32,000 nt of DNA, taken from assembly GCF_001017655.1 (NCBI RefSeq), contig NZ_CP010904.1:1950001-1982000 (forward strand), written 5' to 3'. The DNA is from Kiritimatiella glycovorans (lineage in GTDB: Bacteria; Verrucomicrobiota; Kiritimatiellia; Kiritimatiellales; Kiritimatiellaceae). This document shows, piece by piece, positions 23,520 to 31,241 of this stretch (its first letter is position 1; each line of letters begins with the position of its first letter). The translations under genes were made by a program, and so were the position numbers. Under the pieces are notes generated by a model that saw nothing but the letters and a program-made list of their open reading frames with translations, was not told where the DNA came from and ran no database searches.

Positions 23520-25241
23520 TCAATATCCCTTCTTATGCAGGGGTTTGGTAACGCGCAGCATTTCATCCAGCGAGGTCTCGCCGCGGCGGACGAGTTCCCA
23601 GGCGCTGTTCCAGAGGGTGATCATACCCTGTTCGATCGCGCGCTCCATGATCTCGCCGCTCGAGAGGCGGCGGGAGATCAGCGAGCGCAGATCGTCGGTG
23701 AGCACCATAATCTCGAAGACCGCGCGACGGCCGCGGTAGCCGGTGAAGCGGCAGTACGGGCAGCCGGGTGCCTGACGGCAGTTCGCGTCGTCGATCCCCT
23801 CCAGACCGGATTCCCTCAGATCCTGTTTGACGCCCGCGGGCAGCTCGCACTCCACGGCGCAGCGCGGGCACAGGCTGCGCACGAGGCGCTGGGCGATGAC
23901 CCCCTGCAGTCCTGAAGCCACGAGATAGGGTTCGATACCCATCTCGATCATCCGCGTCACCGCCCCGCCGGTATCGTTGGTGTGCAGGGTACTGAACACG
24001 AGGTGTCCGGTCAGGGCCGCACTGACGGCGATCTCCGCAGTCTCGGTGTCGCGGATTTCGCCGATGAGAACCACATCCGGATCATGGCGGAGGATGGATC
24101 GCAATCCGCTGGCGAAGGTAAATCCTATGCCGCCGTTGACCTGGAGCTGGGAGATCCCCGGGATCCGGTATTCCACGGGGTCCTCGAGCGTGATGATTTT
24201 GCGTTCGTTATTATTGAGATGGTCGAGTGCCGCGTAGAGGCTGGTGGTCTTCCCGCTTCCCGTGGGGCCGGTGAACAGGATCACGCCGTGCGGCTGGGCG
24301 AGCATATCGTCGACCCAGCTCCGCTGTCGTTCCGAAAGCCCCAGTTCGTCCAGGTTGATAAACCGGGACTGGCGGTTGAGGATGCGCAGGTTGACCGTCT
24401 CCCCTTCGGTGGCGGGCAGCACCGAGACGCGGACGTCGATATTCTGATCGTCGAGATCGAAGCTGAACCGTCCGTCCTGGGGCAATCTTTTTTCGGCGAT
24501 ATTGAGCTGCGCCATGACCTTGACGCTGGACATCAGCGCACGGGCGTGTTTGTTCAGCCCCCGCGGCGTGGGCACCGTATAGAGCACGCCGTCGATCCGG
24601 TACCGCAGGCGGAACCCGTCCTCCTCGGGCTCGAGGTGCAGGTCCGTCGCACCGCAGCGGATCGCGTCGTGCAGGATTTCACGCACGAGGGCGGGCATGT
24701 CTCCTTCCGCGTCGCTCCGAGACCTGCGTCCGGATCCTCCCTCCATCCGCAGGTAGGTGGCGATTCCGACCCCGTAGTAGTGCTTGATAAACTCCGAGAG
24801 TTCCTCCGACGTGCAGAAGACCCAGCGCAGCGAGTAGCCGAGCAGCACGCGGAGGTGTTCCTCCTCCGCCGCCGAGCGGACGCGGTCGGTCGCCAGCACC
24901 AGGACGCCGCGTTCCAGCGATACGGGCATGACGCGAAAATTGACGACGGCCTTAGGCGGAACCTGATCGACGATTTCCGGCGGGATCTCGTGGTCCGCGG
25001 ACGCCAGCACCGGGATGCCGGTCAATTCCGAGAGGATCTCGAGCAGTTCGCTCTCGGCGAGGACCCCGTCTCTCAGGATCTGCCGGTCCAGCGGCTGTTT
25101 AAGCCACGCCGCGCGGTCGCGGTATTCCTTAAGGCGCGCCTCACTGATTGTGCCGCGGCGGACGAGCGCTTCCCCCAGCCGCTCCTGGAGGTCGGAGCGG
25201 GCGGAAGGGCCGGCGGATGAGGATGTCGACCGCTTGCTCAT
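23520..25241 (-). CDS. Type IV pilus / type II secretion assembly ATPase (GspE/PilB family)
   Basis: 573 aa. It has an N-terminal T2SSE_N-like domain, Walker A FTGPTGSGKTT, Asp/His boxes (..ITLEDPVEY.., ..ILRHDPDVVLIGEIRD.., ..TGHLVFSTLHTND..) and the tetracysteine motif CPRC...CPYC. Confidence 0.9.
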   Translation of the reverse strand: MSKRSTSSSAGPSARSDLQERLGEALVRRGTISEARLKEYRDRAAWLKQPLDRQILRDGVLAESELLEILSELTGIPVLASADHEIPPEIVDQVPPKAVVNFRVMPVSLERGVLVLATDRVRSAAEEEHLRVLLGYSLRWVFCTSEELSEFIKHYYGVGIATYLRMEGGSGRRSRSDAEGDMPALVREILHDAIRCGATDLHLEPEEDGFRLRYRIDGVLYTVPTPRGLNKHARALMSSVKVMAQLNIAEKRLPQDGRFSFDLDDQNIDVRVSVLPATEGETVNLRILNRQSRFINLDELGLSERQRSWVDDMLAQPHGVILFTGPTGSGKTTSLYAALDHLNNNERKIITLEDPVEYRIPGISQLQVNGGIGFTFASGLRSILRHDPDVVLIGEIRDTETAEIAVSAALTGHLVFSTLHTNDTGGAVTRMIEMGIEPYLVASGLQGVIAQRLVRSLCPRCAVECELPAGVKQDLRESGLEGIDDANCRQAPGCPYCRFTGYRGRRAVFEIMVLTDDLRSLISRRLSSGEIMERAIEQGMITLWNSAWELVRRGETSLDEMLRVTKPLHKKGY

Positions 25242-25246
25242 GACCG

Positions 25247-25882
25247 TCAGGGCTCCGTGAATTTCACGGGATGATCGCGCTGGAGTGTCTTTTTGTGGTC
25301 GCCGGAGACGACCACCAGGCCCGACTTCATAATGTCGCGGACCTCCACCCAGTCAATTTTGGCCCCCTCGCCGTAGAACGCGCTGCCGGAGCCCTGTTTC
25401 TCGATGAGCGCCCGTTCGACGCCGTCGGTACGCTGCAGGTATCCCCGGTAGATCAGGGTCATCGTCTTCTTCGGCGGAGGTGGCGGGGGCTCCTTCTTTT
25501 CCTGTTTCTCTTCCTGTTTCTTTTCCTGCTGCGCCTTTTTGCGTGCTTCGGCGGCTTCGCGCGCCTTGCGTTCCGCCTCGCGCTTTTTACGCAGCGCCTC
25601 CATCCACTGATTGATCTTCTCCGTCAGGTACGCGGACCGGAAGGGGTTTTGCGCCGGGTCGACCTCGATCCGCGCATAGGCGCGCCCTGCCCCGGCGAAA
25701 TCATCCGACGGCCTTTCCGCTTCGGCCTGCAGGTCCGGCCCGGAGACCTCTCCCGCCCGTTCGTAGGCCCTCGATTCGCGCTGTCCCCACCAGATCAGCA
25801 CCGCGCAGAACATGGCGGCGGCGGCGGCGGCGACCCAGCGCACGTCGAGTTTCTGAAGGCGCTGCCAGAAAGCGGCCATCAT
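25247..25882 (-). CDS. PilP/GspC-like pilus alignment protein (TM anchor, K/E-rich coiled linker with a poly-Pro run, C-terminal beta domain)
   Basis: 211 aa. It has an N-terminal TM (WVAAAAAAMFCAVLIWW), a low-complexity linker RKKREAERKAREAAEARKKAQQEKKQEEKQEKKEPPPPPPKK and a C-terminal TLIYRGYLQRTDGVERALIE...GAKIDWVEVRDI...VVV, like the PilP beta domain. The assignment rests on position and pattern. Confidence 0.5.
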   Translation of the reverse strand: MMAAFWQRLQKLDVRWVAAAAAAMFCAVLIWWGQRESRAYERAGEVSGPDLQAEAERPSDDFAGAGRAYARIEVDPAQNPFRSAYLTEKINQWMEALRKKREAERKAREAAEARKKAQQEKKQEEKQEKKEPPPPPPKKTMTLIYRGYLQRTDGVERALIEKQGSGSAFYGEGAKIDWVEVRDIMKSGLVVVSGDHKKTLQRDHPVKFTEP

Positions 25883-26808
25883 TCCGCCTCCTCCGCGGGT
25901 TCGGGCGCTTCGGGTTCCGGCTCCGGTTCGGGCCGGCGGGCACCGACCGCTTCGTTCTTTTCAGGCTCCGTCTCCTCTTCCGGTGTATCGAGTTCCTCCT
26001 CCAGTTCCTCTTCCGTGCGGGTACTCTTGAACCGTTCGGCGCCGCATATCATGCGGAGCTTGAGCACGGGCCCGTTGGTGGTCCCCTGCCGTTCGGCCCA
26101 GAAGCGGCGCAGCGCAAAAAAGTTATTAGTCGAGGAGAGGTCTTCGAGAAGTTTCAGCGTGCCCGGATAGTCGGCCACCGCCTCCACGGAAACGGGGTAC
26201 TCCACGAGGGCCTGTTGGTTGGTATGGCCGATCACGAATTGTCGCGGCTGATCCTGTTCGAGGGCAGTCACCTCCGGAATGGTCGTTTCGAGAAAACGGT
26301 CCATGAGCACGGTGGTGGACGCCAGCTGCCACAGGCGTGTCTCGGTGCTCTCTTCGGCGCCGATATTTTCGCTCATCCCCAGATCGGCCGGAACCGCAAC
26401 CTTCTTTTCAGCGGCACGGGCCGCGATCCGTTCGCGGGCGGCGTACAGCGCCACCTTGTAATCGATCAGTCCCTCTTCGGTCGTCGAGAGAATATCGGCG
26501 AGCGTCACCCCTTTGCCGAAGGTCCGGACGTGGGCCTGAAGCCTCTCCCAGCGCTTCCGCAGGCGCTGGTAGCGGTTGCGTTCCCACGACACGAGGTAGC
26601 GCAGGCTCTCTTCTTCCGGCACCTCGGTATAGGGACTGAGCCTTGATTCCAGTTCCACGATCTGTTCGAGGTGCTGGAGCTTGCGGCTGCGCATGGGCCG
26701 CCAGACCGCCAGCAGCAGGACGGCGATCACGACGAGCGTGACGAGCACGATGGCTACGATCCCGCGTCGTTCCCACACACTTGCGCTGAATGGTCTCCGG
26801 TCCGTCAC
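25879..26808 (-). CDS. PilO/GspM-like pilus alignment protein with an acidic C-terminal tail
   Basis: 309 aa. It has a single N-terminal TM (IVAIVLVTLVVIAVLLLAVW), a coiled-coil region, a globular C-terminal region and an E/P-rich tail. It overlaps both neighbouring genes by 4 nt. Confidence 0.5.
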   Translation of the reverse strand: MTDRRPFSASVWERRGIVAIVLVTLVVIAVLLLAVWRPMRSRKLQHLEQIVELESRLSPYTEVPEEESLRYLVSWERNRYQRLRKRWERLQAHVRTFGKGVTLADILSTTEEGLIDYKVALYAARERIAARAAEKKVAVPADLGMSENIGAEESTETRLWQLASTTVLMDRFLETTIPEVTALEQDQPRQFVIGHTNQQALVEYPVSVEAVADYPGTLKLLEDLSSTNNFFALRRFWAERQGTTNGPVLKLRMICGAERFKSTRTEEELEEELDTPEEETEPEKNEAVGARRPEPEPEPEAPEPAEEAE

Positions 26809-28373
26809 GGCTGCATCATCTCGATTTCAAGGGCGAACAGCGTGGCCTCGGCAAACGACCAGCGCTCTTCGCGTGTTTCGCTCTCTCTGACCTGGTCGTC
26901 GGGGAGCAGGTCCACGTCGGCCACCAGCGGATGACTGCGCAATTTCTCGATCATGCCTCTCACCGTAGAGAGATCGGCCACGGGGGTATAGCCTTCGACC
27001 ACCAGATGGCGGATGCGCGGTCCCATTTCCGTGTTTTCCTGCAGCTCCGCGTCCTGATCCTGCGCCTCGTCATCCTCGTCGACCCCGCGCGCTTTCCGGT
27101 AGGAGCCGAGGTCGGAGACCAGCGTAATCCAGTCGTTCTCGTGCTTGGATCCCGACACGGCCGCCAGCGCGGCCTGCAGTACGCGCCCGTTACGCACTGC
27201 AATTTCGAGCGGTTTCACCCGTCGCTGGAGCCGGCTGTTGAGCTGGCGGTAACGTTTGATTTCCTGTTCGAGCTGGCTGAACTGTTCGAGGCGTTTCTGT
27301 TTGCGGTGCAGGGAGGACTGCAGGCGTTCAACCGTGTTGCCCTCGGAGGTGATCACAATCATGGCGGCGAGTACGGCCAGGAGCCCGGAGAGGATCCAGT
27401 ATTTCATCTGCCACTGGAGATTGATCTTTTCCCTCAGCGGTTCGGGAAGGAAATCCAGATCCAGGGGGGCCTTGCCGATACCCCGCAGGGCCAGGCCCGC
27501 CGCGGCGGCATACCGGGTCGGCTCCTTGAGCCCCGGCGCGCGCCAGGACTTGGGGAACAGCGTGCATTCCAGTTCCGCGCCGTCGGAGATCCGCTGCTGC
27601 CAACGCCGCGGAAATTCGCTCATGCCGCTGATGACAAGGCGGCCGGGATAGAATTTACGGGCCGGGTAGCGGGTGCGGAACGACGTCAGGCAGGCGTGGA
27701 GTTCCGAGTACCATTCCTCGAAAGCCGTCTCGGGCGAACCGTCCTCGCCTCCCTGTTCCAGTTCGGCGTGACCGACCAGGAATCGCCGGCTGAACAGCGG
27801 TTCCCGGCCGTGTCCGAAGATGACCTCCGTATACTGCTCCGAAATCCATGCCGTGGCGAAGGCCTCGTCCCGTCCGGCCAGCAGGAGAGCTGCCGCGTTG
27901 AACGCCGCCGCGGGGCGCGGGGCGAGGCCGACGATCTTCAGGCGCGAGTTGCGCGGCAGTTCCAGCGCGCGGCGGACCGATTCCTCTCTCGTCATTGAGA
28001 ACAGGAGCCGACGTCGGCGGCCGAGTTTTTTGAGCGTCCGGCTGGTGCTCACCGTCCCCTCGCCGCCGACCCCTTCGAAGTGTTCCTCCTGCTCCTCGAC
28101 GATTTCCCGCGTTCCGCGGGGATCATCGGGTTCGACCTGGATCAGGCGGAGCAGAAGCGCGTCGCCGCTCAAGCCCGCCACGCAGGGACGACCGGCCACG
28201 CCTTTGCTCTCGAGGAAGCGGCGCAATACATCGCCTTCCGCCTCTTCGTCCCCGGCGAGACGGAGAAACCCCACCGTCTGCAGCTTAAGAAACGGGCCGC
28301 GGCGCTGGGCGCGCACCACCGCCACCCCCTGCGAGGTGATATCAAGTCCAAGAGCTTCGGTGTACGCGGGCAT
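26805..28373 (-). CDS. PilM-PilN fusion protein (actin-like ATPase fold, then TM and coiled-coil PilN-like region)
   Basis: 522 aa. The N-terminus LGLDITSQGVAVVRAQ resembles PilM GLDIGSxxIK. An internal TM YWILSGLLAVLAAMIVITS is followed by the coiled coil ERLQSSLHRKQKRLEQFSQLEQEIKRYRQLNSRLQ, typical of PilN. Confidence 0.7.
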   Translation of the reverse strand: MPAYTEALGLDITSQGVAVVRAQRRGPFLKLQTVGFLRLAGDEEAEGDVLRRFLESKGVAGRPCVAGLSGDALLLRLIQVEPDDPRGTREIVEEQEEHFEGVGGEGTVSTSRTLKKLGRRRRLLFSMTREESVRRALELPRNSRLKIVGLAPRPAAAFNAAALLLAGRDEAFATAWISEQYTEVIFGHGREPLFSRRFLVGHAELEQGGEDGSPETAFEEWYSELHACLTSFRTRYPARKFYPGRLVISGMSEFPRRWQQRISDGAELECTLFPKSWRAPGLKEPTRYAAAAGLALRGIGKAPLDLDFLPEPLREKINLQWQMKYWILSGLLAVLAAMIVITSEGNTVERLQSSLHRKQKRLEQFSQLEQEIKRYRQLNSRLQRRVKPLEIAVRNGRVLQAALAAVSGSKHENDWITLVSDLGSYRKARGVDEDDEAQDQDAELQENTEMGPRIRHLVVEGYTPVADLSTVRGMIEKLRSHPLVADVDLLPDDQVRESETREERWSFAEATLFALEIEMMQP

Positions 28374-28384
28374 ACTGGACCGGG

Positions 28385-30538
28385 CTAGCCGGATTTCCCT
28401 TCGGCTTTCGGCGCTGGCTTTTTCTCGTCGGCCTTGTCCTTCTCCGGGGCCGACTTTTCGTCGGGCTTCTTCGCGGGAGCGGATTCTTCAGCCGGCGTTT
28501 CCTTCACGACGGCCTGATCTTCCGTCACCGGAGCGGCGGCGGCCCGTGGCTCACGGGGGGCGGCCTGCTCCCCGGCGGCGGGGCGGTTAATCGACGAACG
28601 GCTCAACCGGTTGGCGGGCAGCAATGATTCGCCGCGCTCGGACAGGACGGTCGCCGTAACGAAAATGAGCAGGTTGCGCGTCTGCTCCGAGGTGTGCTCC
28701 TGGCGGAAGGCCTTGCCGATATACGGCAGATCCCCGAGCAGGGGCACCTTGTTTTCGGTGTCTTTTTCGACCACGTCGATGAGACCGCCCATGACGACGG
28801 TCTCTCCGCTTTCGACCACCACGCGGGTCTGGACCTCTTTGCGGGAAAACTTGGGCAGCTTGACCTCGATCTGCTGGACCTGCTGCGCACCGGCGACAAC
28901 GTTCGTGGACTGGTAGCTCTCAAAGCCTTCAAACTGTGCGATCGTGGGCTGGAGCAGCAGATTGATGGTACGGAGGTCGGCGCCGACGCTGGGGACCGCG
29001 ACGAGGGTGATGCCCAGTTCCTCCATCTTCGGCGCGCCCGAGGGCATCAGGGCGGTCACCGTATACTTCCGGTTGTTCGCGTCGACCAGCGCGAATGCCT
29101 GGGCCTTGAATTCATCATAGAACCGGAAGTCCTGGCCATTGCGCAGTTTCGCCGGGGTGTTGTTCAGGGTCGTCACGCGGGGGACCGAGAGCGTGCGGCC
29201 CTTCCCCGAGATGTCGAGGGCATGAAGCACGGCCTGGAACTGGGCGTTGTTCAGAATGCCCTGGTACGTCATATTCAGACCCTGGTCGGCGAGGCTGAAG
29301 CTCTGGTCGGAATCGTTGAACACATCGACCGGCGAGAGTTCGTCCTGTCCCGTGAAGCGGTCAAAGGACACGAGCGGATCGTTCGGCCCGCCCCCCACGA
29401 TGACCTGGTCGGAGTGAAACGTGCTGAAGTCATCGTTCAGAATCCATTCGACGCCCAGCTCGCTCAGGTCCGAGAGCGTGGTCTCGATAAAGCGGGCCTC
29501 GATGAGAATCTGCGGCGGATAGGTATCGAGCGTGCGGATAATCTCTTCGGTTTTTTTCAGGTTGACGGGCGTGTTCTTCACGACCAGCGAATGGGCGTCG
29601 CGGTCCAGCAGCAGCGCGGCTCCCTTGGGCTGCGGTACGAACTGCTTGATTACCTTTTCAACGGAGGTTTCGCCGTCGGGGAGTACGGTGGAGAGCGAGG
29701 AGAGCCCGGCGATTTGATCCTCCTTGCCCTTCTCCGTCCCTTTCCAGTCCGAAGCGTGGAGCAGCAGTCCGCGCTGCAGTTTAAAGATGCGGGTCTGGAA
29801 CATCGGCCCGTCTTTCGGGTTCGGCTTGGTAATCCAGAGAATATTTTTTCCGAAGTAGAACTCCACGCCGAAATTGCGGGCGATATAGTCGAGCACCTCG
29901 GAGAGCGGAGTGTTGCTGACTTCGACGTCCAGTCCTCCCTTCACGGACAGGTTCTGGTCGGCGATGACGTTGAGGTTGCGGTCTTCGGATATCACCCGCA
30001 TGAACTGGTTGAGCGAGGCGTTCTTGAGGTGGATGGTAACCGGCTTGTTCAGCTGTTTCAGGAGGGGATAGTCCTCTTCGAGGTTTTCGACCTCGTCGCG
30101 GTCGACGAAACGACGCATTCCGTAGGTGCCGGGTAGATCCCATCGCTCCCGCGCGTCCTGTGCCAGCGCGCGGGTGGTGGCTTCCTGCTGGGCGTCCAGT
30201 TCCTTTTCGCGCTGCGCCTGCAGGGCCTCGAGCACCTCCGCGCGCAGGGTGCGGAGGCCGGGGGTCTCCGGAGCGGTGTAAGATATATCGACGCACCGCA
30301 TCAGGGCGCGTCGGTAGCGGCCCTGTTCATAGAGCGCTCTGGCCTGCTCCATCATACCCGCCGCTTCCTCGTGGGTGATCTCGGGACGCGATTCGGCCGC
30401 CGAAGCCTCCCGGGAAGCGGAGCCGCCGCCCGTGTGCATACAGCCGGCGGAGAGCGCGGCGGCGAGAACGAGCGTCCATGCGGAAGTGAATATTACAGCC
30501 CTGTGTGTGGATTCAGCCCTTTCGTGAAAGGTGCGCAT
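28385..30538 (-). CDS. Secretin (PilQ/GspD family) outer-membrane channel, probable lipoprotein, TPR-like N-terminal segment, K/P/E/A-rich C-terminal tail
   Basis: ORF 28385..30616. ATG at 30538 is preferred (MRTFHERAESTHRAVIFTSAWTLVLAAALSAGC, with SD aagggaggat 6-8 nt upstream). The secretin core is ...LNNTPAKL...VVVESGETVVMGGLI...KVPLLGDLPYIGKAFR....NLLIFVTATVL. Confidence 0.9.
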   Translation of the reverse strand: MRTFHERAESTHRAVIFTSAWTLVLAAALSAGCMHTGGGSASREASAAESRPEITHEEAAGMMEQARALYEQGRYRRALMRCVDISYTAPETPGLRTLRAEVLEALQAQREKELDAQQEATTRALAQDARERWDLPGTYGMRRFVDRDEVENLEEDYPLLKQLNKPVTIHLKNASLNQFMRVISEDRNLNVIADQNLSVKGGLDVEVSNTPLSEVLDYIARNFGVEFYFGKNILWITKPNPKDGPMFQTRIFKLQRGLLLHASDWKGTEKGKEDQIAGLSSLSTVLPDGETSVEKVIKQFVPQPKGAALLLDRDAHSLVVKNTPVNLKKTEEIIRTLDTYPPQILIEARFIETTLSDLSELGVEWILNDDFSTFHSDQVIVGGGPNDPLVSFDRFTGQDELSPVDVFNDSDQSFSLADQGLNMTYQGILNNAQFQAVLHALDISGKGRTLSVPRVTTLNNTPAKLRNGQDFRFYDEFKAQAFALVDANNRKYTVTALMPSGAPKMEELGITLVAVPSVGADLRTINLLLQPTIAQFEGFESYQSTNVVAGAQQVQQIEVKLPKFSRKEVQTRVVVESGETVVMGGLIDVVEKDTENKVPLLGDLPYIGKAFRQEHTSEQTRNLLIFVTATVLSERGESLLPANRLSRSSINRPAAGEQAAPREPRAAAAPVTEDQAVVKETPAEESAPAKKPDEKSAPEKDKADEKKPAPKAEGKSG

Positions 30539-30625
30539 CAAGGAATCCTCCCTTTTGGATCTGCGGCCCGAGGTGCATATGGGAGACACCATCGCCGATT
30601 TCAGCGATTTTTTCAATACCGGGGT

Positions 30626-30779
30626 CAGCAGTTCTCATTATGGCCGCATTCCGACCGCGGACGGCGTGGCAGCCGTCCCTCCCGAGTCGATATCCGACGC
30701 CTTTTCGGGCATTGGGAGGGTCGGGTTCCACCCCGACCGAACCCGACCGAAAAGGGTGAAGCCATAATGAGAATCGCTG
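30626..30779. mobile_element. 154-bp MITE-like element with 19-bp terminal inverted repeats and a 9-bp target-site duplication
   Basis: Left TIR cagcagttctcattatggc (30626-30644); the right TIR reverse complement is cagcgattctcattatggc (30761-30779), matching 17/19. The direct repeat taccggggt abuts both ends (30617-30625 and 30780-30788). The interior is a set of GC-rich hairpins with no ORF. Confidence 0.65.
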
Positions 30780-30806
30780 TACCGGGGTCGCGATGAACGG
30801 GTGGAC

Positions 30807-30838
30807 GAAAAAAGCCCGGGGCTCACGCACCGGGCTTA
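30807..30838 (-). terminator. Rho-independent terminator after rplQ
   Basis: The minus strand reads AGCCCGG-tgcgtgagcc-CCGGGCT followed by TTTTTT, about 25 nt after the rplQ stop. Confidence 0.7.
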
Positions 30839-30860
30839 AGGGGAGGACGTGAACCGGACT

Positions 30861-31241
30861 TCAGCCGGTCTGACCGACGGATTCGGCGGCCTCCACCCAT
30901 TCGATGAGGGCCATTTCGGATCCGTCGCTCGAGCGGGCTCCGAGCTTGAGGATCCGGGTATACCCGCCGGAGCGATCGGTGAAGCGGGGAGCAAGCTCAT
31001 CGAAGAGCTGTTTAACGGCATCCTCCTGGTGCAGCTCAGACAGCGCGTGGCGGCGGTGCGCCAGCGTGCCCTTTTTGCCCAGCGTCACCATCTTCTCCGC
31101 CACGGGGCGGAGGGCTTTCGCCTTGGTGAGCGTCGTCCGGATCCTGCCGCGCCGGATAAGGTGACACACCTGGTTGGCGAGCAGCTCGTTGCGGTGCGCC
31201 GAGGAGCGCCCCAGTTTTACATTTCTCTTCCGGTGTCTCAT
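30861..31241 (-). CDS. rplQ: 50S ribosomal protein L17
   Basis: 126 aa, MRHRKRNVKLGRSSAHRNELLANQVCHLIRRGRIRTTLTKAKALRPVAEKMVTLGK... is canonical L17. It lies directly downstream of rpoA. Confidence 0.95.
   Translation of the reverse strand: MRHRKRNVKLGRSSAHRNELLANQVCHLIRRGRIRTTLTKAKALRPVAEKMVTLGKKGTLAHRRHALSELHQEDAVKQLFDELAPRFTDRSGGYTRILKLGARSSDGSEMALIEWVEAAESVGQTG

Follow-up and report, generated by a model that had tools for sequence, protein, structure and literature searches.

A 154-bp MITE upstream of the secretin operon of Kiritimatiella glycovorans belongs to a dispersed family of 64 copies

The rplQ-secretin locus

The window analysed here is a stretch of 32,000 nucleotides, C1:1950001-1982000, of one 2,949,723-bp contig with 63.3% G+C (also labelled G000:C1); positions carrying the prefix C1 refer to the contig and all others to the window. 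The genome of K. glycovorans L21-Fru-AB is described as 2.95 Mb in size, with 63.3% G+C and 75 transposase genes (PMC5148204). At the locus of interest, rpoA and rplQ, both on the minus strand, end at an intrinsic terminator, beyond which lie a 154-bp element between two 9-bp direct repeats and a block of five intact ORFs that begins with a secretin gene and ends with a gene for a T2SSE/PilB-type ATPase (Table 1). The secretin has a lipobox-like LSAGC at its N-terminus. The three ORFs between secretin and ATPase (25247-28373, minus strand; 522, 309 and 211 aa) matched no Pfam family at E <= 0.001. The initial annotation had read this block as a secretin-pilMN-pilO-pilP-pilB operon; Pfam identifies the secretin and the PilB-type ATPase, while the labels PilMN, PilO and PilP are without profile support. 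Its placement of the element between the rplQ terminator and the secretin start is borne out.

Table 1. Coordinates of the features at the locus and of related sites elsewhere on the contig.
Feature	Position	Strand	Basis or remark
T2SSE/PilB-type ATPase	23520..25241	-	Pfam E 1.3e-125
Secretin gene, 717 aa	28385..30538	-	PF00263, E 3.3e-32; GGGAGGA before ATG at 30538
Weak candidate core promoter, TTGAAA (30616-30611), 17 nt, GATGGT (30593-30588)	30588..30616	-	Direct reading; putative
Left copy of the 9-bp target-site duplication TACCGGGGT (taccggggt)	30617..30625		Direct reading; duplication perfect
154-bp MITE	30626..30779	+	Rare long variant of the 144-bp family, 64 genome copies
Left terminal inverted repeat CAGCAGTTCTCATTATGGC (cagcagttctcattatggc)	30626..30644	+	Direct reading, 19 bp
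GC-rich REP-like hairpin GGACGGC-GTGGCA-GCCGTCC	30659..30678		Fold; reverse complement nearly equals the genome's tandem-array unit
Second REP-like hairpin, perfect 10-bp stem in the 154-bp variant, GGTCGGGTTC / GAACCCGACC	30719..30748		Fold
10-bp tandem duplication CCCGACCGAA CCCGACCGAA	30732..30751	+	Alignment of all 64 copies; separates the 154-bp variant from the 144-bp consensus
Right terminal inverted repeat GCCATAATGAGAATCGCTG (gccataatgagaatcgctg; reverse complement CAGCGATTCTCATTATGGC)	30761..30779	+	Direct reading
Right copy of the target-site duplication TACCGGGGT	30780..30788		Direct reading
Intrinsic terminator of rpoA-rplQ, hairpin and T-run	30807..30838	-	Stem 30824-30812, then TTTTTCGTCCA; 19 nt upstream of the insertion site
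rplQ (ribosomal protein L17)	30861..31241	-	PF01196, E 9.7e-36
Filled host-repeat sites	C1:116226, 775014, 1273516, 1516131, 1788061, 2352770, 2756518		Duplicated GCTCGACCG
Empty host-repeat sites	C1:2842159, 2915602		Single GCTCGACCG
REP-like arrays (outside the window)	C1:451833-452042, 483011-483215, 1111151-1112060
REP-like arrays (outside the window)	C1:1114653-1115357, 1124204-1124473, 2211926-2212332

The element is 88 bp away from the secretin ATG, on its upstream side. The terminator T-run and the ATG were originally separated by a spacer of 105 nt, in which the insertion target was 19 nt distant from the T-run and 78 nt distant from the ATG. On the minus strand the duplication reads ACCCCGGTA and is directly followed by TTGAAA, which together with GATGGT matches 8 of 12 consensus positions; this pair scores under the promoter-scan threshold and is the sole sigma-70-like arrangement in the spacer. 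Since this TTGAAA, the one -35-like hexamer present, immediately follows the insertion point, the core promoter may have been left intact. A scan of 30300-31000 found no consensus promoter in, across or next to the element, and a terminator scan found neither a terminator-like site inside it nor a T-run past its stem. The strict alternative put forward in the initial annotation, an element that carries the promoter of the operon or else interrupts it, is hence unsupported. An inverted repeat, ATCGC-N8-GCGAT (30591-30608), with a weak terminator-like score on the plus strand, is found in the putative promoter spacer and could be an operator.

The closest genomes available for comparison belong to the same order but to other families, with rplQ/rpoA identities of 65-71%. 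Searches for an empty secretin locus gave no paralogous site within the genome and 0 matches in a metagenome scan with the left flank.

A 64-copy MITE family and its 154-bp sub-lineage

The two terminal inverted repeats (TIRs) of 30626-30779 are complementary at 17 of 19 positions and directly adjoin the exact 9-bp repeats, just as the initial annotation had described them, and each end holds an outward-reading CATAAT 7 nt from the tip. BLASTN with the 154 bp against the whole genome, which had been suggested as a check for further copies, recovered 64 copies at unrelated loci and in both orientations: 61 of 144 bp, two of 154 bp and one truncated. The flanking 9-bp duplication is perfect in 49 of the 64, has one mismatch in eight and two mismatches in two; its sequence varies from copy to copy, with A enriched at position 7 (20/44, p = 3e-5). 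The 29 copies that are identical to the 144-bp consensus point to a recent burst. No fewer than two thirds of the copies fall outside long frames of high GC3; the stop-to-stop ORFs over-call in this respect, running upstream of true starts.

In one case the MITE is nested in another repeated element, which has carried it to seven places, and two copies of the host element have no MITE (Table 1). The filled and empty sites form pairs in which GCTCGACCG is doubled in the former and single in the latter, showing directly that insertion duplicates 9 bp.

The segment 30626-30779 is a real MITE, that is, a non-autonomous DNA transposon with no gene inside. It falls well within the size of such elements (less than about 500 bp with no coding frame of its own), at 154 bp against a 144-bp consensus and with no Pfam-bearing ORF; the 19-bp ends are preserved across all full copies; the target-site duplications are of fixed length and differ in sequence between copies; the 64 copies are dispersed in both orientations; and the ends are held in common with autonomous insertion sequences (IS) of other genomes, none of them in K. 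glycovorans. The reading of the element as a MITE, already made in the initial annotation, is supported by the dispersed copies with the same ends, their individual 9-bp duplications and the autonomous IS elsewhere, and the transposition and family membership of the 154-bp element are demonstrated in this analysis.

The 154-bp copy differs from the 144-bp consensus by A76C, C87T and G102T and by the tandem duplication of CCCGACCGAA, and its identity to the 144-bp copies is 90-93% across 154 alignment columns, the 10-bp gap counted in. C76 and T87 are the markers of a sub-family of 14 copies. Its nearest 144-bp relative, at C1:2190680, has C76, T87 and T102 in common with it; since this relative carries T102 and is still 144 bp long, the substitutions likely came first and the 10-bp duplication second. 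The sole other 154-bp copy (C1:1238665-1238818) is 100% identical, is flanked by CCCGGGAGC, and has a thioredoxin-like gene on one side and on the other an RNase T-family gene, which follows 19 bp downstream. An identical twin with a different duplication means that the 154-bp variant itself transposed after it arose. The 154-bp sub-lineage is young and has moved at least once since its origin.

Predicted fold and REP-like hairpins

ViennaRNA folds the plus strand of the element at -82.5 kcal/mol (z = -7.15 against 200 shuffles), and the minus strand also folds (z = -6.26). The three hairpins and the closing TIR helix that had been drawn on paper were reproduced on the plus strand, where the TIR helix encloses GGACGGC/GCCGTCC, CCCTCCC/GGGAGGG and a third hairpin. 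Five Rfam matches were obtained in 30300-31000, all far under their gathering scores and none inside the element. A position-specific leader RNA was rejected as an explanation, given the 64 unrelated loci, the lack of an Rfam family and the missing rplQ-secretin order in 11 same-order relatives, whose rplQ has no secretin gene within about 1.5 kb downstream.

Elsewhere on the contig, a REP-like unit, GGACGG(C/G)-GTGGAA/TTCCAC-(G/C)CCGTCC or GGTCGGGGTGGAACCCGACC, often with CTCC after it, is repeated in tandem arrays with periods of 41, 43, 48, 78 and 140 bp (Table 1), and short exact matches to it are also present in same-order relatives. Both hairpins within the MITE are near-copies of this array unit. 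The interior of the MITE is unusual in using the host's own REP-like hairpins.

Insertion sequences with the same ends in other genomes

The initial annotation recognised no IS family that matched the ends. Such a family was found: the same 19-bp ends bound IS of 1.44-1.65 kb whose transposase bears the name ISNCY. These autonomous elements have the ends CAGCA(A/G)TTCTCATTATGGC, duplications of 9-10 bp and a transposase of roughly 430 aa. One of them, at L109:6436-7888, measures 1453 bp, bears these ends and contains an ORF of 434 aa. Eight copies of a 1437-bp IS (L220-L227) are present in one long-read assembly, with the ends CAGCAATTCTCATTTTGGC and CAGCAGTTCTCATTATGGC, the right end CAGCAGTTCTCATTATGGC being identical to the left end of the MITE, and seven of the eight are surrounded by duplications of 9-10 bp; the protein encoded by L220 has 431 aa. 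Plasmid pNPUN02 of Nostoc punctiforme carries a 1641-bp element annotated as 'ISNCY family transposase', with the ends CAGCAATTCTCATCATGAG and CAGCAATTCTCATTATGAG and a duplication of 9-10 bp; CAGCAATTCTCATTATGAG agrees with the MITE end in 16 of 19 bases, and the transposase shares 45% identity with P0044, the partner transposase. Homologous transposases flanked by such ends were also found in several other Kiritimatiellia genomes.

The 19-bp ends occur with at most two mismatches in 62 of 401 sampled genomes of the phylum, with dozens of matches in some genomes of the same class, while a reversed control pattern gave 0 or 1 match per genome. In same-class genomes there are end pairs 77-144 bp apart with 9-bp duplications, which are other MITEs. 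The exact 19-mer CAGCAATTCTCATTATGGC is present in MAGs and genomes of many phyla (L100-L179, among the matches listed). Its hosts among the matches listed include Kiritimatiellia, Victivallales, Verrucomicrobiota, Methylococcaceae, Pseudomonadales, Acetobacteraceae, Anaerolineae, Cyanobacteria, Omnitrophota, Desantisbacteria and Planctomycetota, as well as members of Lentisphaerae, Gammaproteobacteria, Alphaproteobacteria and Chloroflexi, and it is mostly found, again among the matches listed, in short MITE-like pairs 50-300 bp apart. None of the DDE_Tnp_1 genes of the MITE-rich relatives has these ends, and a metagenome scan with the subterminal sequence of the MITE gave 0 matches. An ORF beside a solo end (L067) was rejected as a host gene rather than a transposase.

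One further Kiritimatiellia genome (G152) contains a 143-bp MITE (L231, G152:C263:3310-3452; L056, G152:C138) that is about 70% identical over its full length, in reverse orientation. It keeps both hairpins, with at least one compensatory change (GGACGGC/GCCGTCC to GGACGAC/GTCGTCC), and the same genome encodes a full-length homologue of the partner transposase.

A transposase with a predicted Tn5-like fold

The partner transposase belongs to a family with at least 7,923 matching clusters, typically on contigs of 1.4-1.9 kb, and its homologues are named 'ISNCY family transposase' by NCBI. Its sequence is marginally DDE_Tnp_1/IS4-like and is not placed in the IS4 family by the curated cut-offs: its score is 18.7 bits against PF01609 (DDE_Tnp_1, cut-off 23) and 24.5 bits against NF033591, the NCBIfam IS4 model (cut-off 152). 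A sequence-profile search of the PDB with the transposase gave no match to Tn5, and sequence-only PDB searches came back empty. An AlphaFold model (26 homologues; mean pLDDT 85.4) points to the fold of Tn5 transposase, for which an RNase H-like DDE core with an inserted beta domain is characteristic: its best five PDB fold matches are all Tn5 transposase (1MUH, 4DM0, 1MM8, 3ECP and 1MUS; E 6e-11 to 6e-10, probability 1.00), with a TM of about 0.5 over about 410 columns.

Tn5 has 19-bp end sequences and makes 9-bp target duplications, and its target consensus, GNTYWRANC, agrees with an A at position 7 of the duplication. The 19-bp ends and 9-bp duplications of the present family are in this respect Tn5/IS50-like. 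The predicted fold, the length of the ends and the length of the duplication support calling the putative partner 'Tn5-like', and the enriched A at position 7 is a weaker fourth point for the same designation. Unlike Tn5, to whose transposase it is only 14-15% identical, the partner has a conserved pair of cysteines (C136 and C139) in the catalytic region, and unlike Tn5 and IS4 its family bears the NCBI label ISNCY, i.e. not classified. The family may also be linked to ISMae2 of the ISfinder table. The nearly invariant end CAGCA(A/G)TTCTCATTATGGC is now tied to a very large, poorly classified family of transposases with a predicted Tn5-like fold.

Absence of a cognate transposase from K. glycovorans

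A search for an autonomous parent IS with the same TIRs, also suggested in the initial annotation, succeeded in part: IS with the same ends and duplication length exist in other genomes, and none exists in this one. Apart from the MITE copies themselves, five sites match the 19-bp ends when as many as four mismatches are allowed, a number at chance level, and none is beside a transposase. PF14706, the Tn5 N-terminal DNA-binding domain, has no match in the genome; tblastn of the partner transposase against the genome gave a best E of 0.8; and a class-wide protein search for it had 0 matches in this genome. The four resident groups of DDE_Tnp_1 IS were rejected as parents, their ends being unrelated; one of the four is a DUF4372+DDE_Tnp_1 gene, whose own ends are a 41-bp repeat of different sequence.

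The latter gene (L029:1086-2408, minus strand, equivalent to C1 around 1370233-1371555) is a single-copy IS4-type transposase gene with 41-bp TIRs. A 144-bp MITE and its 9-bp duplication, together 153 bp (51 codons), interrupt it without shifting the frame, and the ORF stays open at 440 aa.

The K. glycovorans genome is without a cognate transposase. The presence of 64 copies and no such transposase suggests that the family was spread by a transposase that either has since been lost or was brought in on DNA outside the assembly.

Discussion

We consider it very highly probable that the element is a selfish MITE, moved in trans, whose insertion ahead of the secretin gene probably spared the core promoter. 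It is proposed that a DDE transposase supplied in trans would bind both 19-bp ends and excise the element, which would then insert with a 9-bp staggered cut to give the TACCGGGGT duplication. This copy went into the narrow gap that separates the rplQ terminator from the secretin gene, immediately before the sole -35-like hexamer, and probably displaced just the DNA upstream of the core promoter, leaving the core intact. A spot just past a good terminator and just before a core promoter is plausibly a tolerated one, of the sort typical of MITEs, and selfish DNA in a tolerated intergenic site is the most likely description of what is seen; the effect on the secretin operon is probably small. What counts against this explanation is the coexistence of 29 identical copies with a genome that has no cognate transposase, and a recent burst without such an enzyme is one unusual aspect of the family. 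Also on the opposing side are the searches of relatives, paralogues and metagenomes for an empty secretin locus, which yielded none, and the sub-threshold DDE_Tnp_1 and IS4-model scores of the transposase.

Co-option of the MITE as a regulator of the secretin operon, by an outward promoter element or by a leader hairpin serving as an attenuator, an RNase III site or a stabiliser, is unlikely. The element touches the -35-like TTGAAA and is 88 bp away from the ATG, both of its strands have a strong fold, its 154-bp twin likewise occupies a promoter region, that of an RNase T-family gene 19 bp downstream, and regulatory effects of Correia and ERIC MITEs are documented in the accounts given in PMC3184786 and PMC10969869; but the scan detected no two-hexamer promoter-like site within or spanning the element, its stem is not followed by a T-run, the strong terminator just upstream leaves little read-through to be expected into it, and the 64 copies occupy unrelated loci in both orientations, as unselected insertions would. 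The insertion could alternatively have damaged the operon by splitting its promoter or cutting it off from an activator site, so that secretin and ATPase would be silent or weak. We regard this as quite unlikely, with all five ORFs of the block intact, the -35-like and -10-like hexamers both downstream of the insertion and the 19 nt upstream of the target holding no recognisable site, even though any upstream activator site or UP element would be displaced by 163 bp and the weak -10-like hexamer means that the promoter may depend on an activator.

A different origin altogether, as a REP/REPIN-like palindrome spread by a RAYT-type (HUH) transposase or as a structured RNA gene or leader, is extremely improbable. 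The element folds strongly and forms an imperfect palindrome over its entire length, and its two GC-rich interior hairpins resemble the REP-like unit of the tandem arrays, short matches to which exist in relatives. REP/REPIN elements, however, make no target-site duplications, and here 57 of 64 copies have one with at most one mismatch, while the filled and empty pairs rule out that the flanking repeats are a mere preferred target motif; moreover, the ends are those of a DDE insertion sequence, and there is no Rfam match and no constancy of locus or orientation among the copies.

Beside the reading as a selfish MITE in a tolerated site, a more speculative one, to which we give little credence, takes the family as an orphan burst without a cognate transposase, sustained by cross-mobilisation or transient delivery and possibly having a functional REP-like interior. 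If it were true, an unrelated resident transposase would cross-mobilise the MITE, or an ISNCY/Tn5-like transposase would have been delivered repeatedly and transiently on lost or foreign DNA, and the REP-like interior would let the MITE persist or act, for example as a transcriptional insulator near terminators and promoters such as those of the rplQ/secretin junction.

For the preferred reading, that of a selfish MITE upstream of a core promoter probably left intact, the consequences are practical. The 64 unannotated elements of 144 or 154 bp in the sole Kiritimatiella type-strain genome can now be labelled, and the family accounts for a number of 'structured RNA-like' intergenic palindromes in K. 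glycovorans. Mapping of the secretin-operon promoter must reckon with the 163 bp inserted immediately before the putative -35 hexamer. A literature search returned no paper connecting Kiritimatiella with MITEs.

Comparison with known elements

By the description available in PMC3184786, the closest named analogue appears to be Nezha, a MITE of Anabaena and Nostoc with ISNpu3 of Nostoc punctiforme as its proposed partner (Zhou, Tran and Xu 2008, as cited there); the likeness to ISNpu3 would rest on the host organism, N. punctiforme. Nezha is there given as about 130-170 bp long, with its partner IS outside the MITE-bearing genomes and only in another organism (PMC3184786). On that description the K. 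glycovorans MITE is like Nezha in its similar size, in its TIRs and flanking direct repeats, in its very stable predicted fold and in having a partner IS that is absent from the host genome and present elsewhere. It is unlike Nezha in its host phylum, Kiritimatiellota (PVC group) rather than cyanobacteria, and, as far as Nezha can be compared by description, in its unrelated interior with two host REP-like hairpins.

Similar to Correia/NEMIS, RUP, ERIC, Chunjie and the MaeMITEs, the present family consists of short non-coding elements in many, mostly intergenic copies with TIRs and target-site duplications, and it is derived from or dependent on IS, whereas its sequence is unrelated to theirs. 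With REP/REPIN elements it has in common GC-rich interior hairpins in inverted orientation, and similar hairpins are scattered and arrayed in the genome; it differs from them in its 19-bp DDE-type ends and in its 9-bp duplications, which REP/REPIN elements do not have. The K. glycovorans MITE is ordinary selfish DNA, and it leaves the understanding of how MITEs work unchanged.
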